NCBI GenBank assembly: GCA_965230895.1
Contig: OZ246394.1
Coordinates: forward strand, 569,316 to 633,315
Length of the DNA: 64,000 nucleotides
Source: an uncultured Gammaproteobacteria bacterium
GTDB taxonomy: Bacteria > Patescibacteriota > Microgenomatia > Levybacterales > UBA12049
Direction: 5' to 3'
Shown here: piece after piece, positions 1,506-64,000 of the stretch
Numbering within the stretch: position 1 is the first letter of the stretch
Layout of the letters: every line of letters starts with the position of its first letter
Position numbers and translations under genes: made by a program
The notes under the pieces: generated by a model
Told to the model about the DNA's origin: nothing
Seen by the model: only the letters and a program-made list of their open reading frames with translations
Database searches by the model: none

Positions 1506-1513
1506 CATAGAAG

Positions 1514-4519: not shown

Positions 4520-4699
4520 CCTCAGAAACCGCAATTTAATCTAAAGGACTCCGCAATATTTACGAATAATTTACGTTCTACGGGGCTATTACTTACGGGA
4601 TGTAAAATAGAATATGTCAGAATCGAGAGAAATTTTAGCAAGTACCAGCAAGCTAATCAAGGATAGCAGCATAGTCAATACTGAACACTATAGGATTAG

Positions 4700-4771
4700 T
4701 GAGCCCCTGGGGATTCGAACCCCAAACCAATACCTTAAGAGGGTACTGCTCTACCGTTGAGCTAGAGGCCC
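4700..4771 (-). tRNA. tRNA-Lys (anticodon CTT)
   Basis: The reverse complement folds as a cloverleaf: acceptor GGGCCTC/GGGGCTC, D-arm GCTC-AACGGTA-GAGC, anticodon loop CTCTTAA, T-arm TGGGG-TTCGAAT-CCCCA, discriminator A. Confidence 0.85.
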
Positions 4772-4905
4772 AGTTGGAACAGAACTTATTTTACCAAATT
4801 CCGCCTCAAACATCCACTTTTTCTTATTTCCTCTCCAAACTCAGCCTAAACTCACAGTTATCTTGCTTCTCTTCTATAAAACATATACTATAAAATTACG
4901 GATTA

Positions 4906-6123: not shown

Positions 6124-6136
6124 TACATAAATCAGC

Positions 6137-30496: not shown

Positions 30497-31531
30497 ATGA
30501 AAAAGTTAATCTTCTTAATTAGTTTCCTTTTACTTGCCCTCTTCACAACTTTCAATACCACTCCAACATATGCTCAAGTAGTCCCAACCAATTGTGATCA
30601 ACAAATGAATATGGATGGGATGAATATGCCACAACCGTCTTGTCCTCCAGCACCAACTCCAACAGTTGCGATAAATCCTGATGCTGCAAATACACCAGTT
30701 GTCCGCAAAAATATCTATAGTATGACACCAGATGAGTTAAATAGATTTATCAATGCGTTAAATACAGTTCGAGCAAATGGTTCGTATAATCGATTTATGG
30801 ATGAGCATATGCAAGCGATGATGATGAGAACTCCCGCAGATGACACTTCTACATTAAGAAATGCCGCACATCGAGGACCAATATTTTTGCCTTGGCATAG
30901 AGCATTTGTATGGGAATTCGAACAACTATTAAGAACTGTTGATCCAACTGTATCCATCCCATACTGGGCTTTCGAAAATGAAACTCCAGGAACTATACCT
31001 ATGGTATTCTCTGCAAACTATTTTGGTGGCGATGGAAACATTGCGCAGGGTGATAGAGTTACTGATGGACCTTTCGCTTCATGGGGAATTACGAGGAGAA
31101 TAGGCCGAGACGCACAAGGTCAACCAACACTTCCAACCGCGGGAGATATTGCAACAGTATTACAGATCAATGATTATGATACCCCACCATACAATGAATC
31201 TTCACAAGGTTTTAGAAACGCACTAGAGGGATGGATTGGGACAAATGCTCCATGGGGAGTTCATAATAGAGTTCACGGATATATCGGTGGAGATATGCTC
31301 CCTGATGGCATGAGTGGTAATGCTGTTAACGATCCTATCTTTTGGGTTGTTCATACAAACATTGATCGAATCTGGTGGCAGTGGCAACAGACTCATGGAA
31401 TAACAAATTACCAACCTGTTGTCGGTGGACCTGAAGGACATAATCTTAATGATGTGATGTTTATCCTCCCAAGTCAGGGAACAGCGTCAAATACTTTAGA
31501 TATAAATCAGATGAACTACACGTATAACTAA
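30497..31531 (+). CDS. Secreted tyrosinase / type-3 copper polyphenol oxidase
   Basis: Sec signal MKKLIFLISFLLLALFTTFNTTPTYA. CuA motif HRGPIFLPWHRAF. CuB motifs HNRVHGYIGGDM and DPIFWVVHTNIDRIWWQWQ. Confidence 0.85.
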   Translation: MKKLIFLISFLLLALFTTFNTTPTYAQVVPTNCDQQMNMDGMNMPQPSCPPAPTPTVAINPDAANTPVVRKNIYSMTPDELNRFINALNTVRANGSYNRFMDEHMQAMMMRTPADDTSTLRNAAHRGPIFLPWHRAFVWEFEQLLRTVDPTVSIPYWAFENETPGTIPMVFSANYFGGDGNIAQGDRVTDGPFASWGITRRIGRDAQGQPTLPTAGDIATVLQINDYDTPPYNESSQGFRNALEGWIGTNAPWGVHNRVHGYIGGDMLPDGMSGNAVNDPIFWVVHTNIDRIWWQWQQTHGITNYQPVVGGPEGHNLNDVMFILPSQGTASNTLDINQMNYTYN

Positions 31532-49148: not shown

Positions 49149-50300
49149 ATGTCCAAATGGTTCTTGGGGTGCATTACCGCGGTTTTGTTATTCCTCTTCC
49201 TTCCAAACCAGACAGCACTTGCAGCAGAAAACCCTGTCGCTGTCGCCAACAATAAAGTCGGAATTCATATTCTTTCCGGACTTGAATTGCCGCAGGCCGC
49301 AGAACTCGTCAATAGTAAAGGCGGTGACTGGGGGTATGTTATTGTACCAATCCAATCTGGAGATAAAGACCTCATCAAATGGCAAAAATTCATGGATGAT
49401 TGCAAGAAATATCGCGTTATACCTGTTATTCGATTAGCAACAGAAGGAGATTATTTCAATACTTCAGTATGGAGAGAGCCTACCCCATCCGATATTATCG
49501 ATTTTGCAAATTTTTTGAACTCCCTTGATTGGCCGACAAAGAACCGATACGTCATTGTATTTAATGAAGTGAATCGTGGTGACGAATGGGGTGGGGCAGC
49601 GAATCCAAAAGAATATGCAGAGATTCTGAGTTTTGCAGTCAGTGTTTTTAAGTCAAAGACACCTGATTTCTTTATGATCAGCGCCGGCTTAGATAATGCT
49701 GCACCTGAAGAAGGAACAAAATACATGAATCAATACAGTTATCTGAAACGGATGAATGAGGCTGTGCCAGGCATATTTAATCAACTCGATGGTCTGAGTA
49801 GTCATTCATATCCAAATCCAGGCTTTTCGCAACCACCGGATGACAAGGGCCAAATGGGTATATCGAGTTTTGTTTATGAACGGACACTTGTCAAAAGTAT
49901 GAGCAATAAATTACTTCCTGTATTTATTACAGAAACAGGTTGGGTTTCAGATAAGGTCAGTGATGATCAGCGCGCAGAGTATTATAAAAAAGCTTTTGCA
50001 ACAGTATGGAACGATCCTGGAGTTGTAGCAGTCATGCCATTTTTACTGCAGGCAGGTGCTGGTCCATTTGAAAAATTCACGTTTATTAAAGGTAATGGAG
50101 AAAAGACAAAGCAATATCAAGTCATCCAGGAGATGCCAAAAGTAAAAGGTGTCCCGAGCTACCCTACTCGCCGAGTTCTTGCGGCCAAGACAAGCCGCGA
50201 AGCCGAGATGAAAGATTTTTCATACTATCAGAGAGACCAGCGATCATTTTCTTTGAGCGCAGTGATGCAGGATGTCTTTAATTACTTAATAAACAAGTAA
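49149..50300 (+). CDS. Secreted TIM-barrel glycoside hydrolase, clan GH-A-like
   Basis: Signal peptide. VIVFNEVN (candidate acid/base NE) and VFITETGW (candidate nucleophile ITE) spaced as in GH-A families. Confidence 0.4.
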   Translation: MSKWFLGCITAVLLFLFLPNQTALAAENPVAVANNKVGIHILSGLELPQAAELVNSKGGDWGYVIVPIQSGDKDLIKWQKFMDDCKKYRVIPVIRLATEGDYFNTSVWREPTPSDIIDFANFLNSLDWPTKNRYVIVFNEVNRGDEWGGAANPKEYAEILSFAVSVFKSKTPDFFMISAGLDNAAPEEGTKYMNQYSYLKRMNEAVPGIFNQLDGLSSHSYPNPGFSQPPDDKGQMGISSFVYERTLVKSMSNKLLPVFITETGWVSDKVSDDQRAEYYKKAFATVWNDPGVVAVMPFLLQAGAGPFEKFTFIKGNGEKTKQYQVIQEMPKVKGVPSYPTRRVLAAKTSREAEMKDFSYYQRDQRSFSLSAVMQDVFNYLINK

Positions 50301-50339
50301 TTCTTGCAATTATATTGTTTAGGCTTTATAAACTACTGT

Positions 50340-51032
50340 ATGCTTACAATTATCCACGGTGCTGATACCGCTGCTTCGCGAAAATATTTCCTTGACCAAA
50401 AACAACCATATGCTGATGCTATCCTTTTGGATGCCGACAAAGTAAATCTTACAGATTTAGCGCAAATATTTGAAGGCGGAGGATTATTTGGCGAAAGCAA
50501 AATTGTTTTTATTGAGCAGCTTATTACCAAAAAGAAAAAAGCTTCTGAATTTAAGGATCTTGTAGCGTATTTAGAAAAGCATGCTGACGAACACACTATC
50601 TTTCTTTGGGAAAGCAAAGAGTTGGAGATAGGTACATTAAAAGCATTCAAGAAGGCGGCGCAGCGTCCCTTCAAATTGCCACAGACCCTTTTTCTCCTCC
50701 TTGATAGTCTGAAACCAGGAAATGGAAAAGCACTTGTCATACTCTTCCATCAAACCCTTGAATCTGCAGAGCTAGAAATGGTCTTTTTTATGCTCATCCG
50801 TCAGATCAGATTACTCCTTGCCCTTCATGAATCATCAGAGAACGAAATAGAAGAAGTGAAACGTATGGCTCCATGGCAAAGAACAAAGCTCGAGAAACAA
50901 GCCAGATTATTTACACGTGAGCAACTACTGTTGATGTATCACAAACTCTTTATCCTCGAACGTGGACAAAAAACAGGTGGACTCACCACATCTTTAAGTG
51001 CTGCAATTGACTTTTTACTTATCGGCATTTAA
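50340..51032 (+). CDS. holA: DNA polymerase III delta subunit
   Basis: Start at ATG 50340. YADAILLDADKVNLTDLAQIFEGGGLFGESKIVFIE resembles the delta N-terminal domain. Confidence 0.65.
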   Translation: MLTIIHGADTAASRKYFLDQKQPYADAILLDADKVNLTDLAQIFEGGGLFGESKIVFIEQLITKKKKASEFKDLVAYLEKHADEHTIFLWESKELEIGTLKAFKKAAQRPFKLPQTLFLLLDSLKPGNGKALVILFHQTLESAELEMVFFMLIRQIRLLLALHESSENEIEEVKRMAPWQRTKLEKQARLFTREQLLLMYHKLFILERGQKTGGLTTSLSAAIDFLLIGI

Positions 51033-51043
51033 AATGGGAGTTA

Positions 51044-52459
51044 TTGTTCAGACATTACTCTGAACCAATGCATATGGCTGATATTGATTCAAAAATCTTC
51101 AAAGCATACGACATCCGCGGTATTTATCCTGAACAACTTAATGAGACAAATATTGTTGATATCGTCCGTGCTATTTATAAATTCTTCCATGATAGTATAG
51201 GCAAAGAGCAGCCTACAATTGTACTTGCATATGATATGCGATTGTCTGGTCCACAACTCTATGCAACTGCGAAAAAGACACTTGTTGATATGGGAGCAAA
51301 GGTTATCGATGCTGGACAGCTCTCTACCCCATCATTTTACTTTACCGTATTCCATTATGCTTACGATTGCGGAATTCAGATTACTGCATCACACAATCCA
51401 AAGGAATATAATGGCTTAAAATTCGTTCGCTACACTCCTGAAGGGCTTATCAAGATTGGTAAGTCTACTGGCATGGAAGATATCAAAACTATGGCAATTC
51501 AAGGAGTTGAATTCACTCCGACAACCACTGGATCGATTGAAGAAAAGACAGGCATCCTTGAAGATGAAGTTGCAAATGCGCTTAAGGTCTTTGGAAATCC
51601 TGAATTAAAGAAGTTCAAGATCGTTGCCGATCCAGCAAATGCTATGGGCGCACAATATATCGGTGCTATCTTTGATAAGGTTCCAGCAGATCTTATCAAG
51701 ATGAACTTTGAACTTGATGGAAGTTTCCCTGCACATCAACCAGATCCACTCGATTTTAATAATTTGAAAGATCTGCAAGCACGAGTTCTTGCAGAAGGAG
51801 CAGATCTTGGATTGGCGCCTGATGGGGATGGAGATCGTTTGTACTTCGTAGATGAAAAAGGTCAGATTACCCCAGCAACACTTATTACAGCACTTGTTGC
51901 TCGAGAAGTTTTGAAAAATAATCCTGGAGCAAGAATCTATGTAGATATTCGATATATTCTCGGAACAAAGAAAATTGTCGAAGAGTTTGGTGGAGTGACT
52001 GAGATTACCAAGGTTGGCCATGCATTCATCACTGAAGCAATGAATAAGACTGGTGGACCGTTCGCTGGAGAGTCATCAGGCCATTTCTACTTCAAGTCTG
52101 CAGGCAACGGTGAGTCACAACTTGCAACGTTAGTCAGTGTCCTTAAAGTGCTTTCTGAATCGGGCAAGCCACTCTCTGAAGTTGTAGAAGAACTTCGAAG
52201 AAGTTTTGAATCTGGTGAATTGAATTTCAAGGTAAGCAATTCAGCAGAAATCCTTGAAGCAATCAAGCAAAAGTATAGCGATGGCGAACTTGAAACCATG
52301 GATGGCGTATCGATCACCTATCCTGATTGGAGAGTAAATGTACGAACTTCCAATACAGAACCATTACTTCGATTGAATCTCGAGAGCTATGACAAAGAAA
52401 CGATGCAACAGAAGTTCGAAGAAGTCAAAGGTCTCATCCAGTCTCTTGCTAAGGAATGA
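51044..52459 (+). CDS. Phosphoglucomutase/phosphomannomutase (archaeal-type)
   Basis: Active-site TASHNPKEYNGLKF; Mg loop DGDGDR. The true start may be at ATG 51068 or 51074. Confidence 0.85.
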   Translation: MFRHYSEPMHMADIDSKIFKAYDIRGIYPEQLNETNIVDIVRAIYKFFHDSIGKEQPTIVLAYDMRLSGPQLYATAKKTLVDMGAKVIDAGQLSTPSFYFTVFHYAYDCGIQITASHNPKEYNGLKFVRYTPEGLIKIGKSTGMEDIKTMAIQGVEFTPTTTGSIEEKTGILEDEVANALKVFGNPELKKFKIVADPANAMGAQYIGAIFDKVPADLIKMNFELDGSFPAHQPDPLDFNNLKDLQARVLAEGADLGLAPDGDGDRLYFVDEKGQITPATLITALVAREVLKNNPGARIYVDIRYILGTKKIVEEFGGVTEITKVGHAFITEAMNKTGGPFAGESSGHFYFKSAGNGESQLATLVSVLKVLSESGKPLSEVVEELRRSFESGELNFKVSNSAEILEAIKQKYSDGELETMDGVSITYPDWRVNVRTSNTEPLLRLNLESYDKETMQQKFEEVKGLIQSLAKE

Positions 52460-52470
52460 TATAATATCTT

Positions 52471-52914
52471 ATGCCTGATTTAAGTAAGTTCGATAAATCC
52501 AAATTCACTACAAAGCCCTACGTAAAACGTGTTGAAAAACCATGGGGTTACGAAATCCATTGGGTTCCTGCCGGCCTCCCATACATGGGGAAAATCCTTC
52601 ATATTGATGCTGGACGACGTCTTTCAATGCAAGTTCATGATCAAAAACAAGAAACATATTGGCTCTTAAATGGAGAATGCAATTTAATTCTTGAGAATGA
52701 GAAAGGTGAACTCGAAACCGTTAAGTTGAAGAAAGGCGAAGGTTATACAACGCAGATTGGGCAGAGACACAGACATCAAGCTGTAACTGATTGTGATATT
52801 GTCGAAGCTTCAACAGCTGAACTTGGAACTACATGGCGATTGGAAGACGACTACAGTAGACCAAACGAAACCGAAGAGTTACGCAAAAAGCCTAATCGAG
52901 GCTGGGATAAATAA
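52471..52914 (+). CDS. Cupin-domain protein (type II mannose-6-phosphate isomerase C-terminal-like)
   Basis: Cupin motifs SMQVHDQKQETYWLLNG and GQRHRHQA; 147 aa. Confidence 0.55.
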   Translation: MPDLSKFDKSKFTTKPYVKRVEKPWGYEIHWVPAGLPYMGKILHIDAGRRLSMQVHDQKQETYWLLNGECNLILENEKGELETVKLKKGEGYTTQIGQRHRHQAVTDCDIVEASTAELGTTWRLEDDYSRPNETEELRKKPNRGWDK

Positions 52915-52920
52915 TGTAAT

Positions 52921-52945
52921 GTCATCCTGAACTTGTTTCAGGATC
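52921..52945 (+). repeat. Interspersed hairpin repeat, copy D (first hairpin only)
   Basis: gtcatcctgaacttgtttcaggatc, 10 nt upstream of the next start codon. Confidence 0.65.
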
Positions 52946-52954
52946 TTTTAATAA

Positions 52955-53995
52955 ATGCTTGATCTCAACAACAAAGAGCACATCCAGGAAATCGATAAGT
53001 TAGATGCCCTCGGCACCACTGAAAATCTTCTTAAGCAATGCGAAGCCGCATGGAATGAATCAACTGCTCTCTCTGTGCCTAAGATAGAAAATGTAACAAA
53101 TATTGTCTTTTGCGGCATGGGCGCTTCCATGTATGGTGGACTTGTCTTAAAATCATTACTCGGTCGAAATGTACCATATCCAGTTGAAATCGTTAGTGAC
53201 TACTATTTGCCTGATTATGTTGGAAAGAATACACTTGTCGTATTAACAAGTTACTCAGGAACAACTGAAGAAGTGCTTTCTTGTGCTGAGGACGCAAAGT
53301 CGAAAGAAGCACAAATGATTGTGGTAACAAAAGGAGGAACGCTTGCTGAATTTGCTCGAGATAACAATGTTCCTGCGTATATATTTGATCCCAAGCTTAA
53401 CCCAAATAATGTTCCTCGGTTGGGCACTGGCTATACAATTCTTGGGATGATTGGTCTGTTAAATAAAACCGGCGTTATAGATATTGAGGAGAAAGAGATC
53501 TCAGATGCACTTGTCCGTATGTATGATAAATTTGATGAGATCAAGCAGCAAGCTTTTGAGGACCACAAGATATTTATCAATAAAATCCCCATTATAGTTG
53601 CTGCAGAACAGCTTACGGGAAATGCTTTAATATTGCGAAATCAACTCAATGAAACCAGCAAGGCATTCTCTGCTTTTTATCTCCTCCCTGATCTAAATCA
53701 CCATCTTATGGAAGGATTGCAATTCCCTGCTGAAGCTCCCCTCCATTTCCTTGCTCTTAGTTCTCCAAATTATTCGGACAAGATTAAAAAGCGCCTAACA
53801 CTAACCGAAGAAGTTATTATACAAAATAAATATCCCGCTCATGAGTTTACGACTAGTGGTCAAACAAGTTATGATGATGTATTAGAGGTGCTATTTTATG
53901 GAAGCTTCCTAACTGTATATCTCGGCTTGGCTTATGAACAGAATCCTGGGACTAATCCTTGGGTAGATTGGTTTAAGAAGGAATTAAATGCTTAA
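52955..53995 (+). CDS. Bifunctional phosphoglucose/phosphomannose isomerase (SIS domain, archaeal type)
   Basis: SIS loop FCGMGASMYGGLVLKS and a second SIS region; 346 aa. Confidence 0.8.
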   Translation: MLDLNNKEHIQEIDKLDALGTTENLLKQCEAAWNESTALSVPKIENVTNIVFCGMGASMYGGLVLKSLLGRNVPYPVEIVSDYYLPDYVGKNTLVVLTSYSGTTEEVLSCAEDAKSKEAQMIVVTKGGTLAEFARDNNVPAYIFDPKLNPNNVPRLGTGYTILGMIGLLNKTGVIDIEEKEISDALVRMYDKFDEIKQQAFEDHKIFINKIPIIVAAEQLTGNALILRNQLNETSKAFSAFYLLPDLNHHLMEGLQFPAEAPLHFLALSSPNYSDKIKKRLTLTEEVIIQNKYPAHEFTTSGQTSYDDVLEVLFYGSFLTVYLGLAYEQNPGTNPWVDWFKKELNA

Positions 53996-54366
53996 GCAAC
54001 AATTGACTTCACTTTATCGACAAGCTGTGCAGGCGTAAAAGAACTCTTCAACATATAGCCATCAGTAAATCCCAAAACATGATCAATGTCTTTTGTCTCA
54101 TCACTATTCGTTAGAAAAAGAATATGCTTAGCAGGCTTCTTCAAGAATGTTTTAACCTGATCCATAATCTGGACACCGGTCATAATGGGTAGAAGTACGT
54201 CTAAAAGAATTAAATCCCATCCTCCAATTTTGATTTTATCCAATGCTTCTTTCCCATCAGCTGCTGTAGTTACATCATATCCAGCACTTGAAAGCGTTTC
54301 GTTATAAATATCACGAAGAAACATATCATCTTCTACTAGGAGTATTTTTATTTTGTTTTCCATCAC
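53992..54366 (-). CDS. Stand-alone response-regulator receiver domain (CheY-like)
   Basis: KILLVEDD (acidic pocket), phospho-acceptor D in LILLDVLLP, conserved T and K later; 124 aa; no output domain. Confidence 0.8.
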   Translation of the reverse strand: MMENKIKILLVEDDMFLRDIYNETLSSAGYDVTTAADGKEALDKIKIGGWDLILLDVLLPIMTGVQIMDQVKTFLKKPAKHILFLTNSDETKDIDHVLGFTDGYMLKSSFTPAQLVDKVKSIVA

Positions 54367-54391
54367 TCTATTCTATCAATAAATCCTTTAA

Positions 54392-54423
54392 AACAAAAGA
54401 AAACCACCAGTTGGTGGTTTTTA
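54392..54423 (-). terminator. Rho-independent terminator downstream of pilin gene 1
   Basis: On the minus strand, aaaaaccaccaactggtggtttt is followed by a T-rich run. Confidence 0.55.
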
Positions 54424-54442
54424 AAACATATGCATTCCCCTA

Positions 54443-54925
54443 TTATCGAGTAACTTGGATTGGTGGAGTATATGCACTTGGTGCTGAAACTGTTATTCTA
54501 TTATTTGTATCTCTTGTAATTGTGTAACCTGTGTTCCATGTTCCTGCGCATTCACCAGCTTCAACTCCTGCCTGATCATTAAGTGTTGGATCCATTGGAA
54601 GTGCTGGCATATAATTTGGTACTAACTGAGCACAAAGAGCACCTAAATCGGCCCCACTTTGCAATGGGGTTGGGTCATTTACATCCAAAGCCTGAACAAG
54701 CGGCGGTAATTGCCCAGTATTTGATGCTGTATATTGTCCGATTGCATTAAGAATCTGAGTAACATCACTTCGACGCTTTGTATCATTTGCTTGGCCAAAT
54801 TGTCGTGCAGGGTTAATAGCGATAAGTGTGATTGCTAAAAGGATAGCGAGGATACCGATTACAACGAGTAATTCGATGAGTGTGAAACCTTTTTGGTCTT
54901 TGTTAAATATTTGTCGGACAGTCAT
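54443..54925 (-). CDS. Type IV major pilin, paralog 1
   Basis: Class III leader and cleavage site NKDQKG|FTLIELLVVIGILAIL with Glu5; about 160 aa; C-terminal Cys pair. Confidence 0.85.
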   Translation of the reverse strand: MTVRQIFNKDQKGFTLIELLVVIGILAILLAITLIAINPARQFGQANDTKRRSDVTQILNAIGQYTASNTGQLPPLVQALDVNDPTPLQSGADLGALCAQLVPNYMPALPMDPTLNDQAGVEAGECAGTWNTGYTITRDTNNRITVSAPSAYTPPIQVTR

Positions 54926-54970
54926 GTTTTGTTTTGATCAAGTTATCTTGATCTGTATCTATTATTGTCA
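54926..54970 (-). promoter_or_regulatory. Conserved pilin 5' leader with perfect 18-nt palindrome gatcaagttatcttgatc (54936..54953)
   Basis: A nearly identical 45-nt stretch precedes both pilin start codons; the second copy is at 56561..56605. Confidence 0.5.
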
Positions 54971-55076
54971 GAGTCGGTATATCCTGTCAATATGTCTAAA
55001 TAGTCAAAAATATATTTAAATAGATCAGTTTACTTTTCAAGAAATTATTTGAATCTAAAAAAGATAATGATGTATT

Positions 55077-55406
55077 TTGATCATCTTGACACAGACTCAA
55101 CCTTTACTTCATTATAGATATATAATGTTGAAACCAACGAAACATCATGAACCACTAAGTAGCGCAAAAGCAATTATTGCAATACTGGTTTTAGGTATCG
55201 CTTTTGTACTCTTTTATAAGTTCATAACAAATCAGGAATTCTTCTTGGATGATCCAGAAGCTCTTCGAAACTACGTCATCTTTACTATTACAGTAAGTGG
55301 GTTCTTAATTGGGCTTCTTTACCTCACAAGCCAGACAAAGCACAAAGCGAAAACAAAATCCAAGTCAATTTCAAAAGCTAAGCCTACTAAAAAGAAGAAG
55401 AAATAA
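55077..55406 (+). CDS. Small membrane protein with Lys-rich C-terminus
   Basis: Two hydrophobic helices and a KKKKK tail; the start is uncertain (ATG 55077 or 55125). Confidence 0.3.
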   Translation: MIILTQTQPLLHYRYIMLKPTKHHEPLSSAKAIIAILVLGIAFVLFYKFITNQEFFLDDPEALRNYVIFTITVSGFLIGLLYLTSQTKHKAKTKSKSISKAKPTKKKKK

Positions 55407-55421
55407 CTTTTAATTTTCTTT

Positions 55422-56042
55422 CTACAATTCCCTTGCAATTACTCTTGTTGGTGCACCATCTGCTTTTAGTTTTATCGGTAGCGCAATAACTTCAAACGCA
55501 TCCACTTCTAATAGTTGTCCCACGTTTGTTAAATTCTCAAGAATAAATATCTCGTTTGTTAAAAGTATCTTATGAACAATCCAAGGTTGATCAGCGTCAG
55601 GACCGGACATATCCATTCCCACTCCACTTATGTTATGTTCCACCATCATTCTTGCAAAGTCTTCAGCAATCACAGGAGCATTACTGAAGTAATCTTCCTG
55701 CCCATACTTTTCACCAAAACCCGTATACAAGAGAACTATCGAACCTTCTTTTAATGCAATTCCATCAAGAACAGATCCATCAATAATATCCTTTCCCTGT
55801 ACATCGAGTACTATTCCATTTCCAATAAACTTCTCTACAGGCAATGCGTCAATTGTTTTGCCTCCAGCAATCATATGCAATGGAGCATCCATGTGTGTCC
55901 CGACATGCATAACAGTCGTAAGCTTATGATCGTTAAAACTATTTTCTTTAATGCTTGCGACCTGTTCTATTTGGGGCTTCGGATCACCAGGAAAGACTGG
56001 TATATCATCAGAGAAAGTATGAGATAAATCAAATAATTTCAT
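55422..56042 (-). CDS. Cyclase-family protein (kynurenine formamidase-like metal-dependent hydrolase)
   Basis: Motif HVGTHMDAPLHM (HxGTHxDxPxH) typical of the cyclase/arylformamidase family. Confidence 0.75.
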   Translation of the reverse strand: MKLFDLSHTFSDDIPVFPGDPKPQIEQVASIKENSFNDHKLTTVMHVGTHMDAPLHMIAGGKTIDALPVEKFIGNGIVLDVQGKDIIDGSVLDGIALKEGSIVLLYTGFGEKYGQEDYFSNAPVIAEDFARMMVEHNISGVGMDMSGPDADQPWIVHKILLTNEIFILENLTNVGQLLEVDAFEVIALPIKLKADGAPTRVIAREL

Positions 56043-56083
56043 AAAGAAGAGTATACAAAAGAATTGTAAAGATTATTGAAGAA

Positions 56084-56560
56084 TTAGCGAGTTACTTGGA
56101 TTGGAGGAGTGTATGCACTTGGCGCTGATACTGTTATTCTATTATTTGCATCTTTTGCAACTGTATATCCAGTGTCCCATGTGCCCGCGCAGTCACCAGC
56201 TTCAACTCCAGCTTGATCGTTAAGAGTTGGATCCATTGGAAGTGCTGGCATATAATTTGGAACTAATTGTCCACAGAGGGATGGGAAATTTGTACTATTG
56301 AGTGCGGCTGAACCACTTGCAAGAGCTTGAACATTTGGAGGCAATTGGCCTGTATTAGATGCTGTGTATTGTCCGATTGCGTTAAGAATCTGTGTTACAT
56401 CACTTCGACGCTTTGTATCGTTTGCTTGTCCGAATTGTCGTGCTGGATTAATTGCGATAAGAGTGATAGCTAAAAGAATAGCGAGGATACCAATTACAAC
56501 GAGTAATTCTATGAGTGTGAAACCTTTTTGATTTTTATTAAATACTTCTCGGACAGTCAT
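56084..56560 (-). CDS. Type IV major pilin, paralog 2
   Basis: MTVREVFNKNQKG|FTLIELLVVIGIL. N- and C-terminal thirds are near-identical to paralog 1. The ORF-track start at 56614 reads through the conserved untranslated leader. Confidence 0.85.
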   Translation of the reverse strand: MTVREVFNKNQKGFTLIELLVVIGILAILLAITLIAINPARQFGQANDTKRRSDVTQILNAIGQYTASNTGQLPPNVQALASGSAALNSTNFPSLCGQLVPNYMPALPMDPTLNDQAGVEAGDCAGTWDTGYTVAKDANNRITVSAPSAYTPPIQVTR

Positions 56561-56660
56561 ATTGTTTTTGATCAAGTTATCTTGATCTGTATCCATTATT
56601 GTCATAATGCTCAACTGTTGTCAATAGAGCAAAAATTGAAAAAAAATCGAAAATTCAAGG

Positions 56661-57800
56661 CTATTTACCTAGGATAATCGTAATATCATTATCGCCTTCT
56701 TGTCTTTCTTCTACAGTGATATTTGGTCTTATTTTTTCAACTTCCTCAAGAATTGCGGTGCGGGTAGATTGAGTTACAGTCCCAGCAAAAAAAATAACTG
56801 ATTCTGAATTTCTAGTACTACTCCTTGTTTGCGTAGTTATGTCTTTGAATTTATATGTTTCAAGAGCGGTCCGTAAAGGCGCAGAACTAGAAGCAGAAGA
56901 ACTGACAATTTGAACGGTAAGATTTTCAAACTGAACTGGTTCAACCGGTGGAACTGTCGGCGGTACAGTTGCTACAGGGGCAGTCTGAGGCATAACAGTT
57001 GGTTGAACCGTAGCTTGGGGCGCTGGTGGTTGCATGCTTTGCATGTAAACGATAACCAGAACAACCAGTAAAATTACTAATATTCCAATCATTCCTATTA
57101 ATCGTTTCTTATTTGTCTTTGGTGGTTCTTTCCCTTGCGCTAATTCTTCCTGAACTTCGTCAACAGATTCTTCCTCTTCTTTTTTTGCCGGAGTAAATGC
57201 AGCTTGGGTCTTAATATCATATTGCTTCAAACTTGGAGTTTTCTGAATTGTCGTATTGATGAGATTCATGTCCATCGGTTTTGCACTCAATTCCCCACCC
57301 AATACCATTCCCGGAAAAACAGAGGCAATAGTAAAGCCAAGCTTTTCAAATGCTCGTTCAATGGTTGCATAGAGATCCTGATTGACTGCACAAACACGTA
57401 TACCATTTTTTAGTGGGAATGTTTTGCTCACCACATTTTCATAAGGAACATGTTCGATAAACATATCAATCTGAGGTTTTAAATCAGCAATTGTTGTTTT
57501 AGGTGTGGCAGTTGGTACAGGCTGTCCAGATTTTACTGGCTGCTGAGCTGATTGCGGAGGAATGATAAAGTCTTTCACGAAATAAGCATTATCTGCGAGT
57601 ACGATAATGAAGTTACTTGGAGGGATTTTGTTATTTGTTACTAAAATCTTTATTTGCTCTTCAAGCTTGTCATCATTTAATACATCCAAGTCCCGCACAA
57701 TATCTGGAGGAAATCGATATTCCACAAGTGATTTTAAATAAGGTGAATATAATTGAAATTTATCTTTTTGGAGATAGATTACTCCTGTTCTTACTGCCAT
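56661..57800 (-). CDS. Bitopic pilus-assembly-like protein (cytoplasmic N-domain, TM, Pro/Thr/Val-rich periplasmic region); PilM/PilN/PilO-like role is inferred
   Basis: TM helix LIGMIGILVILLVVLVIVYM near residue 230; position inside the pilin operon. Confidence 0.3.
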   Translation of the reverse strand: MAVRTGVIYLQKDKFQLYSPYLKSLVEYRFPPDIVRDLDVLNDDKLEEQIKILVTNNKIPPSNFIIVLADNAYFVKDFIIPPQSAQQPVKSGQPVPTATPKTTIADLKPQIDMFIEHVPYENVVSKTFPLKNGIRVCAVNQDLYATIERAFEKLGFTIASVFPGMVLGGELSAKPMDMNLINTTIQKTPSLKQYDIKTQAAFTPAKKEEEESVDEVQEELAQGKEPPKTNKKRLIGMIGILVILLVVLVIVYMQSMQPPAPQATVQPTVMPQTAPVATVPPTVPPVEPVQFENLTVQIVSSSASSSAPLRTALETYKFKDITTQTRSSTRNSESVIFFAGTVTQSTRTAILEEVEKIRPNITVEERQEGDNDITIILGK

Positions 57801-57801
57801 A

Positions 57802-58224
57802 TTAGAAAGCCTCTTTCTCTGACGTAACCGTCAGTTGATTATTTATATACGTTGCTCGGACCTCAACAGTTCTTTTGAAATTACCGACTGTTCCAGTTGA
57901 TGTAATAATATACGGACTCCCCGATGTGCCACTCCCTCCTACGGTTATAACTGCCTGACCTTGACCGATTGTCAAAGTTTCACCCGTATACGTTGTGGGT
58001 GTACGAAGTAGTCGCAATAATCCGTTCTCTGCCCCACTCTGCGCAACTTGATACGCAACTTCTCCCTGTTGTTGTCTTGTTCCACTATTTGAATTTATCA
58101 AGATCATAACAATTGCCGCAGACGTAATCGTTAGTCCAATAATCATAAAGAACAATAGCGTTATAAGCGCTTGCCCTCGTTGATATGAGAGCGATAATTT
58201 CTTAATTACTTTACCACTTCTCAT
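57802..58224 (-). CDS. Minor pilin / pseudopilin-like protein (non-canonical +1/+5 residues)
   Basis: QRG|QALITLLFFMIIGLTI prepilin-like N-terminus lacking Glu5; 140 aa. Confidence 0.5.
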   Translation of the reverse strand: MRSGKVIKKLSLSYQRGQALITLLFFMIIGLTITSAAIVMILINSNSGTRQQQGEVAYQVAQSGAENGLLRLLRTPTTYTGETLTIGQGQAVITVGGSGTSGSPYIITSTGTVGNFKRTVEVRATYINNQLTVTSEKEAF

Positions 58225-58775
58225 TGTCTTGCTAAAGTTGTCTGGAACGACCTTGATTCTGCACCCGACGGCTGCTGAATCCTACTCACCACAGTGAAAT
58301 TCACCCGAATTGTATCATTACTATCTCCTGCTCCAATCCGTTGGAAAGATAAACCTGTAAGGTATGAGTTAGCTCCGTTTAATTTATTTACTTCTCCGGT
58401 TGATCCATTTGTGAGGAGAAGATTTCCCCCACTATCAAGGCTATAGGTATAGTTTATAGAATTTACCCGTATTTGCAAAGTAGACGAAGTCACTCCTGGA
58501 GATGCTGGAGTAGTTATACGATCACCTGATGGAGAAGCACTTATGGATTTCATATCATAAAACAACTTGCCCATGATATATCTTCCATCCTGATCAACAA
58601 CGGATGTTGATTCTGATTCCAACTGAACTTCAACAATCTGTCCAAACATCGTACTCATAATACCAACGAGTATTGAAAGAATTCCTACATACAAAACTAA
58701 TTCGATAAGTGTAAATCCTTTTTGCCTTTTTTGAGAGGATACCTTGGCAGCAAAAAACTTCTGAAAAAATTTCAT
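58221..58775 (-). CDS. Minor pilin / pseudopilin
   Basis: KRQKG|FTLIELVLYVGILSILVG with Glu5; 184 aa. Confidence 0.7.
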   Translation of the reverse strand: MKFFQKFFAAKVSSQKRQKGFTLIELVLYVGILSILVGIMSTMFGQIVEVQLESESTSVVDQDGRYIMGKLFYDMKSISASPSGDRITTPASPGVTSSTLQIRVNSINYTYSLDSGGNLLLTNGSTGEVNKLNGANSYLTGLSFQRIGAGDSNDTIRVNFTVVSRIQQPSGAESRSFQTTLARQ

Positions 58776-58829
58776 ACCTACATTGAGCGTACTGGTTTAT
58801 GTGAGGATATTCAAGAGGAAGATAATTAT

Positions 58830-61073
58830 TTACGAACCACCATTGGATCCACCTGAACCGGACCCGCCGTTTTGATCTCCTTGAAGTTGATTAATCAAGC
58901 TTGTAATATCAGTGTACAATAAATTATATCCTTCAACTGTTATACTCTTCCCTTTTTGTTTATTGAGTTCCACAAGCATAGCTTTCAAAGTTATAATTGC
59001 GAGCTTATTTCCCAATGGTTGTCTGTTGATTAATGTAGCTCTTTCTGCAACTTCAGCTTGCACTTTGAGTGCTGTATAAAATATAACGTTTTTAATTTGC
59101 TTCTGCTGGTAGAGTTTCTTGATGTCATCTTTTAGAATATTAAAGGTAATTTCACGGATAGGTTCTGTTTTAATATTATTTATATTTTCTTTATCATATG
59201 AAAGTTTATATACAGCCTCTGTTTCAGGAGTTAGATTACCCGTATAGGAAGCGGTTTTCATTTCCCCTTCCTCAGTAAATATATACTCATCCAATTGATA
59301 ATCTGGATCGGTTGCGGAGTAAAGTTCTACTCTATAATTGCTTGATTCTGGCTTTGCAAAATAGAATACCTTTACAGCTGATGTATTTGTATTAAATGGT
59401 TCTTCTACAAGTTGTGCAGGACTGTACTCCAAATAACTTTCCCCATACGTAGCTCCATTCTCATCACGAACAGTTATATAAACATCTTTATCAGCGACAT
59501 AAACCATGTAAGATAGATCAGTATGTGAAGGAATATATCTTCTAACCGATACTGCTTGGTTATTATATGAGGCAAGGGTTGTTCTATTAAATAGCGGATC
59601 ATTTATTTCAAAAGTATTGCCAGTTTTACCTTTCGCCACAACGAAATGCATACCAGGAGCATTTACTTGTAAAATATTAGGAATACCTTGATTTAAATCA
59701 TTTGTTAAAGTCGTTGTATTGAAGTACATATCAGGATTATACTCGAGAGCATCATATTGAAAGTTTGGGTTCTGCGACTTTGCTTTTTTAGCTAGATTCC
59801 CCACAGCGGACCATATAACTCCTAAATTACGATTATAGCCCTTATTTTCTTTCAACCATTTGTTTACGGTTCCTGGATTAACATCACTTCCGTCTGGCAT
59901 TTTGTTAATCCCATGATATCTTAAAATCATTGCAATTGAACTTGTAGCGCATCCACACTGCGTCATAGTCCTTCCACAGACAAACTGCCCAGCATTAGCG
60001 TGATCAAATTCTTCTGCCTCCCATGCAGGATTATTGTCATTATATGGAGCAACTCCTTGCTTAAATAAAGGTACATTTAAACTTGCTCCACCTATTGGAG
60101 GGGTTGGGATCATAGAAGGGAGAGGATTTGTAATTGTTTTTGGGTCAAAAGTACTAATTTTATCAAATTGTGCAAACCAAATATTACCGTCTGGGCCAGA
60201 AGTTATGTCATACACTGCACCTGAAGTATCGTATTCAATTACGTCTCCATTTTGTTGAAATTTTCCAATTATTTTTGTATTAGATCGTGTATACCATAGA
60301 GCATCATCTGATCCTAAAGTGAGTTGATCGACGTTTGGTTTAAATATTGGGTATTCAGTTATATCTCCGTGGTAAGTTATATTAGCGATTTTATTTCCAC
60401 CGTATTCTGTAAACCAAATATTATTGTTTGGGCCAAGAGCTATTCCTGTTGGGGAGCTTGAAAGAGTAGGTATTGTAAATTCAGTAATAACCCCTGTTGG
60501 AGTTATTCTTCCTATCTGATTGTCATTTGACTCAGTGAACCAAATATTGCCATCAGAACCACTAACAAGACGGACCAGTCCGATAAATGATGACGCTGGC
60601 AACTCAAAGTACATAACTGAACCACTACTGGATATTCTACCAATCTTATTTGTATTCCCAGAAGAAAACCACATATTATTATCTGGACCTAAAATAATAT
60701 CATCAGGAGCAAAATTATTATCAAGTTGATATTCAGTTATTGAACCATTTATTGTAGACCTTGCTACTTTATGAGAATTAAACTCAGTAAACCAGACATT
60801 ACCATTATTATCGCTAACAATCGAATTCGGCCTACTATATGGAGATGGTATTGTGTACTCTGTCACTATACCGGATATAGTAACTTTTCCTATCTTATTT
60901 GTTTCTATTGCAGTATACCAAATATTTCCGTCAGGACCTGATGTAATACTGGACACATTACTTCCATAAGGTAGTTGATAATCCTTGATACTAGAAGCCT
61001 CTGCAGTAGAACTAGCAAATAAAAAAAGTATAAACAAAGAAGTCACTAGACTAAAACGAAAAAAATTAATCAT
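58830..61073 (-). CDS. Secreted multidomain protein: 7-bladed Vgb-lyase-like beta-propeller, papain-like peptidase_C39-like domain and C-terminal beta/helical region
   Basis: Sec signal. Seven repeats of the form GPDGNIWFTE...NKIGRIT. Then QFVCGRTMTQCGCATSSIAM (Cys), GMHFVVAKG (His) and INDP (Asp/Asn). Gly/Ser tail. Confidence 0.6.
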   Translation of the reverse strand: MINFFRFSLVTSLFILFLFASSTAEASSIKDYQLPYGSNVSSITSGPDGNIWYTAIETNKIGKVTISGIVTEYTIPSPYSRPNSIVSDNNGNVWFTEFNSHKVARSTINGSITEYQLDNNFAPDDIILGPDNNMWFSSGNTNKIGRISSSGSVMYFELPASSFIGLVRLVSGSDGNIWFTESNDNQIGRITPTGVITEFTIPTLSSSPTGIALGPNNNIWFTEYGGNKIANITYHGDITEYPIFKPNVDQLTLGSDDALWYTRSNTKIIGKFQQNGDVIEYDTSGAVYDITSGPDGNIWFAQFDKISTFDPKTITNPLPSMIPTPPIGGASLNVPLFKQGVAPYNDNNPAWEAEEFDHANAGQFVCGRTMTQCGCATSSIAMILRYHGINKMPDGSDVNPGTVNKWLKENKGYNRNLGVIWSAVGNLAKKAKSQNPNFQYDALEYNPDMYFNTTTLTNDLNQGIPNILQVNAPGMHFVVAKGKTGNTFEINDPLFNRTTLASYNNQAVSVRRYIPSHTDLSYMVYVADKDVYITVRDENGATYGESYLEYSPAQLVEEPFNTNTSAVKVFYFAKPESSNYRVELYSATDPDYQLDEYIFTEEGEMKTASYTGNLTPETEAVYKLSYDKENINNIKTEPIREITFNILKDDIKKLYQQKQIKNVIFYTALKVQAEVAERATLINRQPLGNKLAIITLKAMLVELNKQKGKSITVEGYNLLYTDITSLINQLQGDQNGGSGSGGSNGGS

Positions 61074-61119
61074 AGGCCTATGTATATTTATATAATACTT
61101 TTGTATTATATTTCAATAC

Positions 61120-63624
61120 CTATTGTGAGTAATTCCATTTAATATCATTTAGAACCGGAGTAACTCTTTGATCAGTTAAGGATTCCAATGTAACCTTATA
61201 TCTAAAGCATCTTTCTGGATTAATATACTCATTATTTACATAACTTCCAAAAGGTATTTTATCTTCGATAACTGAGGATTCTGAAGTATAATAGGTGCTT
61301 TCACTCCCATCAGGGCCTACATATTTATAACCGGATGTTGGACAGTTTCCATTTATCTGAGCATGTACCGCTACTTGAATTTTTACGGAAGTATTAGAGG
61401 GTTGAGTAACATTCGCCAAAAGCCTGTTGAGCGTTCTAGCAATTGTACTTCCATCAGCGGTGGCTGTATCAAACACTTGTGATTCGAAAGTTCCACTTGG
61501 CATAAAAATCGCATTATCAGGACCCCCCTGAATAATTTTTAATTCATTCAATTGGTTATTTGCGACCATATAGACATAGTTGTCATAATCCGCTTCTGAT
61601 ACAGATGTTAGGTCATTAAAACCGTCAGAGAAATCCACTCCAGAACAATACGTTGGGGTTGCTTCTGTCTCAGTATTGAGGACCTGGTATTCCTGAGCAT
61701 TTCCCCCACCAGATACACCATCCTTTCCCACAAGTACTGCGCGTTGGCCATTGAGTACGGTCAGAGATCGTCGTGGGTATAATTCTGAAGCTCCAGCTGG
61801 TGCTGGAGACGCTCCATTATAAAATCCAGAAGATGGGGTACTTGATCCTGTCAAAAATGTCGGAGAGGTTTTAGATGTAGTATTAAGGATATAGAATTGC
61901 TTACTATCGCTTCCTCCATTTGAGGAGATATATGCTCTCGTGCCATCTGCATTTGCAAATACTGAATTTGATGCCTCCTCTGTCCCTGATCCAGTATTAA
62001 AATCTTTACTTCCGCTGACCCTCCATGTAGACGCTCCTCCAGAAATTCTTCCACAACTATTTCCTGTTAACGAAGTTCCACTCGTTGGAGCCGTTGTGAC
62101 ATTCACAATTTCAAATTCCGGATTTGTCACTCCACCGACAGCAACATAAACATAGGTATTGTTTCCCACTTTCACTGGATAAATGTCATTTGTAGCACGC
62201 AATTCGATATTTCCTCCATCCGAACAATCATTATGAATTGGAGAAGTTGTGTCGCTCCAGCTTGTCCCTGATTGGCCAGAATCATACTTCGCAGCAGTTC
62301 CCGTTGTTCCGGGCTTACACTCATAGCCATCCAATTCAATCCTACAGCCATACATATCCAAACCACTCGAGGTCGATTTACTATCAATATTTGCCAGATT
62401 GAAAACATACAGATATCCGCCTGATGCGACATATCCCCGATCGCCTAATACAGCTACGGACGAAGCACCATAGCCATATGGTGATTGATCATTACTGGAA
62501 CTTGCGATACCATTATATCTTCGTGTATTAAAAAAAGTTTTATATTTATACAGCTTATTAACCGGATCTTGGTATTCTCCACTTGTTGTATTATCGTTGG
62601 CATCATTACCGTCATTTACCCACACTGCAATCACTTCTTTATCAGGAAGATCCGTCCCAATAATTGCATAAGTATTGCCCCCTGAGGATTTATAATACTT
62701 TACGTCCGTGGTTGAAAAGCTATTTGTAAGCCCTGTACCAGATTGAGGCGAATACCCTGAGGCATATTCTGAAGAATTCATTGAAAACCGTCCACGCAAA
62801 GTTGTCGTAGGCGTTTCTGAATTTGCAGTAACATTTATATAAGCTAACTTTGAAGAACTGGTTGCGTATGGAGCAGTTGCAACAAACACATCATTTGGCT
62901 GTGCAGTAGTAGCACTAGCCGTGGCTGCAACAGCAACAGGTGGTCCATCAGGTAAATCAATCGTTGCTTCCCCTCCAAGGCTATTTAAAGCAAATGCTGG
63001 AGAACACCATTTGGCTTTATTATTATTAGCAAGTTTTATTTCTCCACCCGTATCACTCGTGTACTGAACATTAACACCTGTTCCTGCTTCAAATTGAGCT
63101 TTTGTCGTGTGTTCGGCACTTAGATTGGACGTTCTGGTCAGGAAAATGGTTGAGGTGATTGAAGATGCAATTGGCCTGGTCCAGGAAACTGTAATATTAG
63201 CTTTCCGTGTCGAAGGATCAAGTGTATTTCCTGCAGAGGTTGATGCAATTGCTCCTGAGGAATCTCTGTATACACTTGATAATACAACTTGTTGCGTAAA
63301 ACCGGCAGCATTTGATGCAGTTCCTGAAGCCATCGTCCATCGGTTATTTGAAATAACTGGATGATAAGAAGCTCCAATGGTTAAATTAGAAAGCGCTGTC
63401 CAATCACTATCCCGCACGTTTTTAACTGCAGTTTCGGTTTCTTTCATCAAAGCAATCCCTTGCAATCGTTGTTCTTGTTGCGGCTTGCCATCACGCGATG
63501 CGAGCAAACTTAACACCAAACCAGGCAAGATCAACGCTGCCAATCCTATGGTTAAAACTAATTCTACTAATAATTGTCCTCGCTGTAGCTTCTTCATCTT
63601 ATTGCATACTTGAAATAACTCCAT
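61120..63624 (-). CDS. Giant pilin-like protein (834 aa) with prepilin-type N-terminus and a large Ser/Thr/Gly/Asn-rich extracellular domain; candidate tip adhesin
   Basis: KKLQRG|QLLVELVLTIGLAALILPGLVL has Glu5; the rest is a beta-rich domain dominated by S/T/G/N/Y. Confidence 0.55.
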   Translation of the reverse strand: MELFQVCNKMKKLQRGQLLVELVLTIGLAALILPGLVLSLLASRDGKPQQEQRLQGIALMKETETAVKNVRDSDWTALSNLTIGASYHPVISNNRWTMASGTASNAAGFTQQVVLSSVYRDSSGAIASTSAGNTLDPSTRKANITVSWTRPIASSITSTIFLTRTSNLSAEHTTKAQFEAGTGVNVQYTSDTGGEIKLANNNKAKWCSPAFALNSLGGEATIDLPDGPPVAVAATASATTAQPNDVFVATAPYATSSSKLAYINVTANSETPTTTLRGRFSMNSSEYASGYSPQSGTGLTNSFSTTDVKYYKSSGGNTYAIIGTDLPDKEVIAVWVNDGNDANDNTTSGEYQDPVNKLYKYKTFFNTRRYNGIASSSNDQSPYGYGASSVAVLGDRGYVASGGYLYVFNLANIDSKSTSSGLDMYGCRIELDGYECKPGTTGTAAKYDSGQSGTSWSDTTSPIHNDCSDGGNIELRATNDIYPVKVGNNTYVYVAVGGVTNPEFEIVNVTTAPTSGTSLTGNSCGRISGGASTWRVSGSKDFNTGSGTEEASNSVFANADGTRAYISSNGGSDSKQFYILNTTSKTSPTFLTGSSTPSSGFYNGASPAPAGASELYPRRSLTVLNGQRAVLVGKDGVSGGGNAQEYQVLNTETEATPTYCSGVDFSDGFNDLTSVSEADYDNYVYMVANNQLNELKIIQGGPDNAIFMPSGTFESQVFDTATADGSTIARTLNRLLANVTQPSNTSVKIQVAVHAQINGNCPTSGYKYVGPDGSESTYYTSESSVIEDKIPFGSYVNNEYINPERCFRYKVTLESLTDQRVTPVLNDIKWNYSQ

Positions 63625-64000
63625 ACCTATTTAATCGTAGAACTTTCTGATCATTATTCATACTGTCATGAATCGTAATAACAGCTGACGTACTTGCATA
63701 ATTTGTAACTTCTCCACTCCCTTTTGTAAATGTTATCGATGAACTTGCGGAAGCTGTTGTTATAGTTAATGTGTTCGGATATGATACTGCGAAATTAGCT
63801 GAAGCAGTGGCTACATATGTACCTTTATATAGTATATATCGATGATTTGCCGAATCAAATTGGATACCATAATTATCAGCAGTTGTTGTACCACTTGTGT
63901 CACCAGACATAGCTTTTGCTTGTTGATCTTTCAGATCTGCCATAAATGTATTTAAGGTAGAATTAAGCTGTGATTCATTTTGGAACCTGAACAAGCTAAC
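63599..64000 (-). CDS. Pilin-like or pilus-associated protein, 3' part (the N-terminus lies beyond the window edge)
   Basis: The ORF is open to the window end and Ser/Thr-rich like its neighbour; the first Met in the track is probably not the true start. Confidence 0.35.
   Translation of the reverse strand, partial: VSLFRFQNESQLNSTLNTFMADLKDQQAKAMSGDTSGTTTADNYGIQFDSANHRYILYKGTYVATASANFAVSYPNTLTITTASASSSITFTKGSGEVTNYASTSAVITIHDSMNNDQKVLRLNRYGVISSMQ

Follow-up and report, generated by a model that had tools for sequence, protein, structure and literature searches.

Type IV pili (T4P) are near-universal in bacteria of the candidate phyla radiation (CPR) (PMC11623550, PMC7143001), and in the saccharibacterium TM7x the minor pilin PilX2, which carries a C-terminal propeller, is needed for host binding (PMC11623550). 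Here we analyzed a 64,000-nt stretch of contig OZ246394.1 (assembly GCA_965230895.1, positions 569,316 to 633,315 of the forward strand), hereafter the window, in which a sequence-only reading had proposed a T4P-like locus at 53992-64000 with a cyclase and a propeller-peptidase as meaningful components. Our results make it very likely that this region is the distal two thirds of a T4P operon conserved across Microgenomates-type CPR bacteria, to which the cyclase and peptidase genes have been added. Both T4P and a propeller-bearing minor pilin are already known in CPR bacteria, and the locus belongs to that kind.

The T4P-2 of Nanosynbacter lyticus TM7x (PMC11623550/PMC12206443) and the present locus have in common a CPR host, PilB, PilC, small major pilins of the highly expressed type, several minor pilins resembling those of the type II secretion system (T2SS), one large minor pilin with a C-terminal propeller as adhesin candidate, and a locus devoid of a retraction ATPase. 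They differ in class (Saccharibacteria versus Microgenomates), and TM7x encodes separate PilM, PilN and PilO proteins, in place of which the present locus has a single bitopic protein that is GspL-like and carries a LytR_C-like domain on the outside. Moreover, Hpt and receiver genes bracket the operon here, unlike in TM7x. The large minor pilin of the window, 834 aa in length, is likened to PilX2 by architecture and not by sequence comparison. The T2SS (GspE-F-L-G-H-I-J-K) also shares with the locus an ATPase, a polytopic platform protein, a GspG-like major subunit, a GspH-like minor subunit and one minor subunit without Glu5, as in GspK; in contrast, no secretin, GspC or GspM was found here, the cell is of the monoderm type and one minor pilin is a propeller protein of ~830 aa. 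In the type IVa pili of Pseudomonas and Myxococcus, minor pilins and PilY1 form a priming complex. Similarly, four minor pilins and a large propeller protein with a presumed tip location are encoded together in the present locus, but PilY1 is a separate protein, whereas the propeller of this locus and a pilin N-terminus are parts of one polypeptide.

The gene inventory was based on an open reading frame (ORF) listing of 50000-64000 and a Pfam search. The listing gave nine complete minus-strand genes and one truncated at the edge within 53992-64000, with every gene named in the sequence-only reading present where it had been placed, and the profile searches which that reading had proposed returned N_methyl pilins, Cyclase and Peptidase_C39_2; Response_reg was matched as well. 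No Pfam match was obtained for the 140-aa, 379-aa, 834-aa and edge ORFs. The description of the genes as a co-directional run holds for the pilus genes and fails for the locus as a whole, because a gene for a small conserved membrane protein (55077-55406, two transmembrane helices, Lys-rich tail) lies on the plus strand between pilA1 and the cyclase gene.

Two of the minus-strand genes encode major pilins. pilA1 (54443-54925) specifies a 160-aa protein with two Cys residues and the leader MTVRQIFNKDQKG/FTLIE (the slash marks the leader end), which matches N_methyl (2.6e-10), GspG (1.7e-8) and TIGR02532 (1.9e-8); its N-terminal half is GspG-like and its 45 N-terminal residues are almost invariant across relatives. 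pilA2 (56084-56560) specifies a 158-aa protein with the leader MTVREVFNKNQKG/FTLIE (N_methyl 8.9e-11). Most likely pilA2 starts at 56560 (MTVREVF...) and not at 56614, because the upstream part of its ORF is the promoter and 5' untranslated region (5'UTR) duplicated together with pilA1. The duplication spans the segment from the -35 box to the stop codon, and the copies share 87% DNA identity with the differences concentrated in the central loop, which suggests surface variation. Two minor pilins are encoded farther upstream, namely a 184-aa protein (58221-58775, leader ...KRQKG/FTLIE, N_methyl 2.3e-7) and a 140-aa protein of GspK/PilX type without Glu+5 (57802-58224, leader ...YQRG/QALIT), which weakly matches the GspK N-terminus (0.031) and has a conserved position. 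Together with a 161-aa GspH-like protein and the 834-aa propeller protein described below, they constitute a set of four minor pilins. Four of the six pilins (both major pilins and the 184-aa and 161-aa proteins) have the leader motif G/FTLIE, while the motif is G/QLLVE in the 834-aa and G/QALIT in the 140-aa protein. The class III leaders expected of pilins were recognized, with N_methyl or TIGR02532 matches in four proteins and, in the 140-aa and 834-aa proteins, a Gly-1 leader motif followed by a hydrophobic helix as read from the sequence. None of the NCBIfam equivalog cut-offs was reached.

Between the 140-aa pilin gene and pilA2 lies a gene for a 379-aa bitopic protein (56661-57800, minus strand). 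In its structure model, a cytoplasmic domain resembling GspL/PilM is followed by a transmembrane helix at ~231-255, a linker rich in Pro and, on the outside, a LytR_C-like domain, so that an actin-like PilM/GspL-type protein tied to a bitopic partner is present and the designation "bitopic assembly-like protein" in the sequence-only reading was apt. At the other end of the locus, a stand-alone CheY-like receiver (53992-54366, minus strand, Response_reg 4e-17) retains the complete phosphorylation pocket (DD, D56, T and K). A receiver gene occupies the same downstream position in L005, L087, L093, L137, L148 and L153 (labels of related loci, introduced below), marking a downstream end of the locus that is conserved within the near clade.

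Two promoter-like sites of the form TTGACA-18-AATAAT, each with 11 of 12 consensus matches and jointly the best in the region, precede the two pilin copies, one for pilA1 (54961-54990, minus strand) and one for pilA2 and probably also the cyclase gene (56595-56624, minus strand). The sole minus-strand terminator-like hairpin of the region, followed by a T-run, lies directly after pilA1 (54400-54421). In addition, each copy has a perfect palindrome (GATCAAG and CTTGATC arms around ATAA) that follows the -10 box and precedes the start codon (54926-54960 and 56561-56594). It is kept with paired changes in L087 (GATCAAT...ATTGATC) and L137 (GATTAA...TTAATC), occurs also in L005, and is absent from more distant operons. 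An Rfam search of 53000-64000 yielded no match for this hairpin at E values up to 1; it could be an mRNA stabilizer or a protein-binding operator.

To the other side of the truncated gene, the sequence could be followed past position 64000 on a metagenomic contig of 15.8 kb (L001), which was retrieved by an exact match to the 834-aa protein and does not differ from the window DNA over the 1000 overlapping bases aligned. The contig is carried by the Logan runs SRR14271365, SRR14271353 and SRR14271372. The edge gene, of which the window holds the 3' part (63599-64000, minus strand), is complete on this contig (L001:7937-8422) and encodes a 161-aa minor pilin with the leader MKKEQRG/FTLIEF and matches to ComGD (2.3e-10), GspH (5.7e-10) and TIGR02532 (9.1e-8). 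Directly upstream are genes for the polytopic platform protein PilC (L001:6850-7902, T2SSF 1.3e-46 in two stretches) and the assembly ATPase PilB (L001:5162-6847, T2SSE 1.6e-129 and MshEN 2.9e-14), both of which had been expected just past 64000. PilB is preceded by a 121-aa receiver and a 129-aa Hpt-like protein, and farther upstream lie unrelated genes for a PEP-utilising enzyme, a phosphatase, an HD protein, a methylase and LexA. Correspondingly, the statement that the window itself lacks PilB, PilT, PilC and PilD was supported, as no T2SSE, T2SSF or Peptidase_A24 match was found among the 40 ORFs scanned with Pfam in 1-50000 (40 of ~54 ORFs of at least 110 aa, some of the remainder overlapping scanned genes); the scanned ORFs are housekeeping genes (UvrA, UvrC, MutS, MutL, NadE and others). 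A second T2SSE-family gene, such as one for the retraction ATPase PilT of type IVa pili, was found neither in the window nor on L001, nor within 10 kb in ~80 related loci. In Pil-Chp-type control of pili, stand-alone receivers work with a cognate CheA-like kinase and receptor. No kinase was detected in the window or on L001, where two receivers and one Hpt protein are present, and histidine kinases adjoin the operon in L088 and L089.

We further compared 83 related loci around homologues of the 834-aa protein, comprising three annotated loci (L087, L088 and L089) and 80 loci from a metagenome scan with the 834-aa alignment, whose ORFs were analyzed with phmmer. The gene order is almost invariant in ~80 loci: [Hpt-receiver]-PilB-PilC-161-type pilin-large pilin-184-type pilin-140-type pilin-379-type protein-major pilin. 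In 75 loci the large pilin and the 184-type pilin are both encoded, usually by abutting genes, the latter directly following the former. Among the nearer relatives L087, L137, L147, L148 and L153, a receiver gene downstream, a duplicate of the major pilin gene and, on the opposite strand, the gene for the small membrane protein recur. This last protein, for which no Pfam match was obtained, belongs to a family of 93-109 aa encoded next to pilA in L005, L087, L116, L131, L137, L147, L148 and L153, and its gene travels with the major pilin genes. The pilins, PilB, PilC and conserved gene order bear out the assignment of the locus to the T4P type, and the neighbors in homologous genomes, which the sequence-only reading had proposed as a test, are the same pilus genes in the same order.

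The large minor pilin (61120-63624, minus strand) is the most distinctive member of the conserved set. The protein probably starts nine codons later than the 834-aa ORF, with the leader MKKLQRG/QLLVE, giving 825 aa, because the orthologue in the sister genome (L005/L008, GCA_964507055.1) is 825 aa long. Its family comprises more than 120 clusters at 52-87% identity, with named homologues from Levybacteria, Microgenomates or Patescibacteria, many invariant Cys, Trp and Gly residues in the alignment and no Pfam domain. Neither Pfam nor NCBIfam gave a match to the 834-aa protein, including the PilY1/Neisseria_PilC profiles. In an AlphaFold2 model (mean pLDDT 80.4), a helix at 17-73 (57 residues) and a small sheet form a pilin fold, which is followed by a large all-beta region (a beta-propeller) and a C-terminal beta-sandwich. 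Foldseek searches of this model against the PDB gave generic propellers only, with low TM-scores and with DDB1, phage nozzle proteins and a sialidase as the best matches, and a specific relationship to PilY1 was therefore dropped. By analogy, the protein is a putative tip adhesin.

For a machine with these parts, it has to be considered that the main role might be that of a competence pseudopilus taking up DNA, or of a piston as in the T2SS, and not that of a long pilus for adhesion or motility. The GspG-like major pilin, the GspH/ComGD-like minor pilin and the GspL-like platform protein are all T2SS/Com-like, PilT is absent from the locus in all of the ~80 relatives, dprA is close to the operon in L089 and DNA uptake has been proposed for CPR pili (PMC7143001). 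However, a ~830-aa tip protein with a propeller and many conserved Cys residues fits adhesion better than DNA uptake, the TM7x counterpart is a host-binding pilus that likewise has no PilT in its locus (PMC11623550), and comEC was not seen in the window. There is also no outer membrane for a T2SS; neither the window nor the flanks annotated for L001, L005, L087, L088 and L089 gave a family match to GspD or GspC, the outer-membrane secretin and partner by which type II secretion is recognized. We consider such a main role distinctly unlikely, although DNA uptake by a Com-like pseudopilus is compatible with adhesion and the two are not mutually exclusive.

The preferred reading is thus of an adhesive T4P, for which the following sequence of events can be proposed. 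From T4P and T2SS biology, the four minor pilins would prime assembly on PilC and end at the tip, where the 834-aa propeller would be displayed as an adhesin for a host or a surface. The GspL-like bitopic protein would link PilB to the outside and hold or anchor it, and PilB would drive polymerization of the two major pilins (158 aa and 160 aa) from PilC across a monoderm wall, this type of envelope being adopted in the model because a secretin was not detected. Activity would be tuned by the Hpt protein and both CheY-like receivers, and the prepilin peptidase and any retraction ATPase would be encoded elsewhere in the genome.

The two remaining genes of the locus encode enzymes. The first specifies a cytoplasmic, cyclase/arylformamidase-like hydrolase (55422-56042, minus strand), which matches PF04199 over its full length (109.7 bits against a cut-off of 23.1; 1.8e-31) and is thus a member of this broad family. 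As in kynurenine/aryl-formamidases of the "putative cyclase" family, the HxGTHxDxPxH metal motif is intact as read from its sequence; in contrast to these enzymes, the protein scores 105.6 bits against TIGR03035, the kynurenine formamidase equivalog with a cut-off of 223 bits, and no partner genes of tryptophan degradation were seen among the window ORFs scanned. A role in which the enzyme modifies the pilus or its control can be envisaged, for instance through synthesis or breakdown of a small-molecule signal acting via the flanking receivers: the gene starts 41 nt after pilA2 with no terminator-like site in between and is probably read from the pilA2 promoter, and the sister genome keeps it in the same place at 74% identity. 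However, a homologue was found in none of the 83 related pilus loci and otherwise only in the sister genome, the closest homologues outside the locus not having been searched. Furthermore, other genomes with two pilin copies carry other genes between them, such as the unrelated 95-aa and 161-aa ORFs in L087, the protein has no signal peptide and its gene is unremarkable in composition. We regard such a role as very improbable. The cyclase gene is a lineage-specific passenger that landed between the two pilin copies and its product probably has no role in the pilus, contrary to the part that the sequence-only reading had given it. Recent transfer as foreign DNA was considered for both the cyclase and the peptidase gene and was rejected, as their GC content and that of their third codon positions (GC3) are within the range of their neighbors and composition lends no support.

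The second enzyme is a secreted propeller-C39_2 peptidase of 747 aa (58830-61073, minus strand), encoded in a variable cargo slot between the large pilin and the 184-aa pilin. A Sec signal peptide and a Vgb-lyase-type propeller (Vgb_lyase 9.5e-76) precede its Peptidase_C39_2 domain (PF13529, 6e-7, 30.6 bits with the cut-off at 24 bits), after which come a region rich in beta structure, a helical tail and a C-terminus rich in Gly and Ser. All members of its family have signal peptides, and an alignment of 17 C-terminal parts shows no variation in the motifs GCA (Cys), HF (His) and NDP (Asp), consistent with a papain-like Cys/His enzyme. The PF13529 match and the aligned Cys/His motifs are shared with C39/C39_2 peptidases of solved structure (LahT150, PDB 6mpz; 3erv), although the similarity is marginal, as in the weak alignment with the double-glycine C39 protease 6mpz (E 0.002). 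Compared with these peptidases, the protein is Sec-exported, has no ABC fusion, carries an N-terminal propeller and has a C-terminal extension of ~250 aa. A bacteriocin-type C39 peptidase is the N-terminal domain of an ABC exporter and has a double-glycine substrate encoded nearby, whereas the present peptidase is stand-alone and the locus contains no ABC transporter. Prepilin processing is the task of a polytopic aspartic protease that acts on the cytoplasmic side. That the C39 peptidase might stand in for this enzyme was rejected on account of its cleavable Sec signal and extracellular location. A secreted C39 protein has been noted earlier in a Microgenomates genome (PMC7143001). Many members of the family end, after the helical region, in a Gly/Ser-rich tail (...GGSGSGGSNGGS, ...PGGS, ...GGGGS), which was seen at 58830-58870 and in the homologues P0002-P0007, P0010, P0020 and P0107 and may be a sorting or anchoring signal.

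In a scan with one genome per species, the peptidase was found at 79 loci, 78 of them distinct (L008 duplicates L005), in Levybacteria, Woesebacteria, Roizmanbacteria and other Patescibacteria. At ~72 of the 78 distinct loci it is encoded away from pilus genes, and at least two pilus genes occur nearby only in L005/L008, L017, L027, L028 and L040 among the 79. Conversely, a copy is present in only four of ~80 pilus operons (L090, L113, L137 and L147; ~5%), where it occupies one of three sites amid the minor-pilin genes. Moreover, L087 and L171 share 90% DNA identity on both flanks of the slot, which measures 215 bp in L087 (12493-12707) and 3.3 kb in L171 (7360-10693). The 215-bp remnant still encodes the last ~20 residues of the peptidase, including the Gly/Ser-rich tail, and the lost segment contained the genes for a Kelch-C39 protein and a 269-aa membrane protein. 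L087 has recently undergone a deletion of the peptidase cassette, which is therefore dispensable for the pilus machine; the two loci also constitute a natural presence/absence pair for this cassette. On the synteny counts and the L087 deletion, the peptidase was rejected as a conserved pilus component, and its presentation as a meaningful part of the locus was not supported. It would be at most an accessory extracellular hydrolase, acting on the cell wall or a host surface and co-expressed with the pilus.

Several points nevertheless weigh against the reading of a conserved pilus operon with add-on genes. In a rough neighbor-joining tree, the operon-embedded peptidase copies fall into at least four separate branches, which argues for some functional tie rather than pure hitch-hiking, and within the near clade the peptidase keeps the same slot while the large pilins have diverged to ~70% identity. 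Neither PilT nor PilD was found in 72 kb (the 64-kb window, with the 40 ORFs scanned of 1-50000, and 8 kb on L001), so that processing and retraction are assumed for this pilus. The adhesin role of the 834-aa protein is argued by analogy, its Foldseek matches being generic propellers. Finally, the promoter and terminator calls are consensus matches, and promoter-like sites overall occur at the frequency expected from shuffled sequence.

The peptidase points raise the alternative that it is a genuine pilus partner, that is, a secreted cysteine hydrolase whose exchangeable N-terminal propeller targets a substrate of the host or of its own wall, either opening the cell wall for the filament or attacking the host surface at the contact site. 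The lytic enzymes BfpH and R64 PilT of type IVb operons presumably open the wall for the filament. In favor of a partner role, the gene is embedded in the minor-pilin block, 46 and 54 nt from its neighbors and with no intervening terminator-like site, it occupies the same slot in the window, L005, L170, L171 and L172 with C-terminal parts 60-73% identical, and it is also found among the minor-pilin genes of the distant operons L017, L027, L028, L040, L090, L137 and L147. The polyphyly of the embedded copies and the invariance of the predicted catalytic Cys, His and Asp point in the same direction, and Peptidase_C39_2 is counted among the enzymatically active domains in phage endolysin surveys. 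However, the peptidase is missing from ~95% of the orthologous operons, most family members have no pilus neighbors within 10 kb, L087 lost the gene recently with the operon undisrupted, no biochemical activity is known for this subfamily and the tree is without support values. A genuine partnership is therefore rather unlikely in our judgement.

The content of the slot itself varies, with peptidase N-termini of Vgb, Kelch or Ig-like type. In the near clade, the propeller is of the Vgb type in the window and L172 and of the Kelch type in L170 and L171, while the L005 peptidase has a ~165-aa non-propeller N-terminus; extra genes in the slot encode a 664-aa LVIVD-repeat protein in L172 and the 269-aa membrane protein in L171. 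Speculatively, the interval that separates the large pilin gene from the following minor-pilin gene might be a dedicated, fast-evolving "effector slot" for secreted hydrolases with a conserved C39_2 module and swappable targeting propellers (Vgb-type, Kelch or Ig-like), and sometimes for further propeller proteins, co-expressed with the pilus tip and acting on the host surface or wall at the contact site. We hold this to be unlikely; if true, the pilus operon would be a combined attachment-and-attack module whose specificity is altered by domain swapping.

Other parts of the window hold features apart from the pilus locus. The interval 3218-9819 may represent an integrated element: it starts with the gene for a large serine recombinase with Resolvase, Recombinase and Zn ribbon domains (3218-4519), after which come a gene for a CAP-domain protein (4906-6123) and two long ORFs with no Pfam match (6137-7771, plus strand; 7768-9819, minus strand). 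At 906-2395 (plus strand), a 199-aa and a 293-aa Cation_efflux ORF adjoin each other, the first lacking the dimerization domain, and may be a duplicated or split transporter gene. At 30497-31531 (plus strand) a tyrosinase-domain protein is encoded (PF00264, 2e-37), which seems unexpected in a CPR genome.

Judging from the names of homologues, the organism appears to be a Microgenomates/Levybacteria-type CPR bacterium. Several public metagenome-assembled genomes of evident Patescibacteria, including L005/L008 and many peptidase loci, are recorded under titles such as "uncultured Gammaproteobacteria/Pseudomonadales bacterium"; their gene content and homologues match Levybacteria/Woesebacteria, and the record titles are unreliable for taxonomy. 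Exact copies of the window proteins are on record from an NCBI contig that measures 1,610,123 bp, and for the sister genome there is a contig of 1.32 Mb. Such contigs exceed the size expected of a CPR genome, and the label "reduced-genome episymbiont" should therefore be used with care.

In a limited literature search, three details of the locus appear to be undescribed, namely the GspL-like protein with a LytR_C-type outer domain, the highly conserved ~830-aa pilin family without a Pfam domain and the variable peptidase slot. These are incremental, and the appeal of the unusual accessory genes mostly dissolves. T4P are the best candidates for the means by which CPR bacteria find and hold their hosts, with experiments available only for Saccharibacteria. 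For a Microgenomates lineage, the present analysis yields an operon map and a fold-level assignment of two families that match no Pfam or NCBIfam domain, the ~830-aa propeller pilin and the GspL-like LytR_C-type protein. It also separates the conserved pilus machine from lineage-specific cargo and avoids over-reading, in that the cyclase should not be annotated as pilus-related, while the peptidase slot with its varying content offers a modest but testable clue to enzymes of host interaction.

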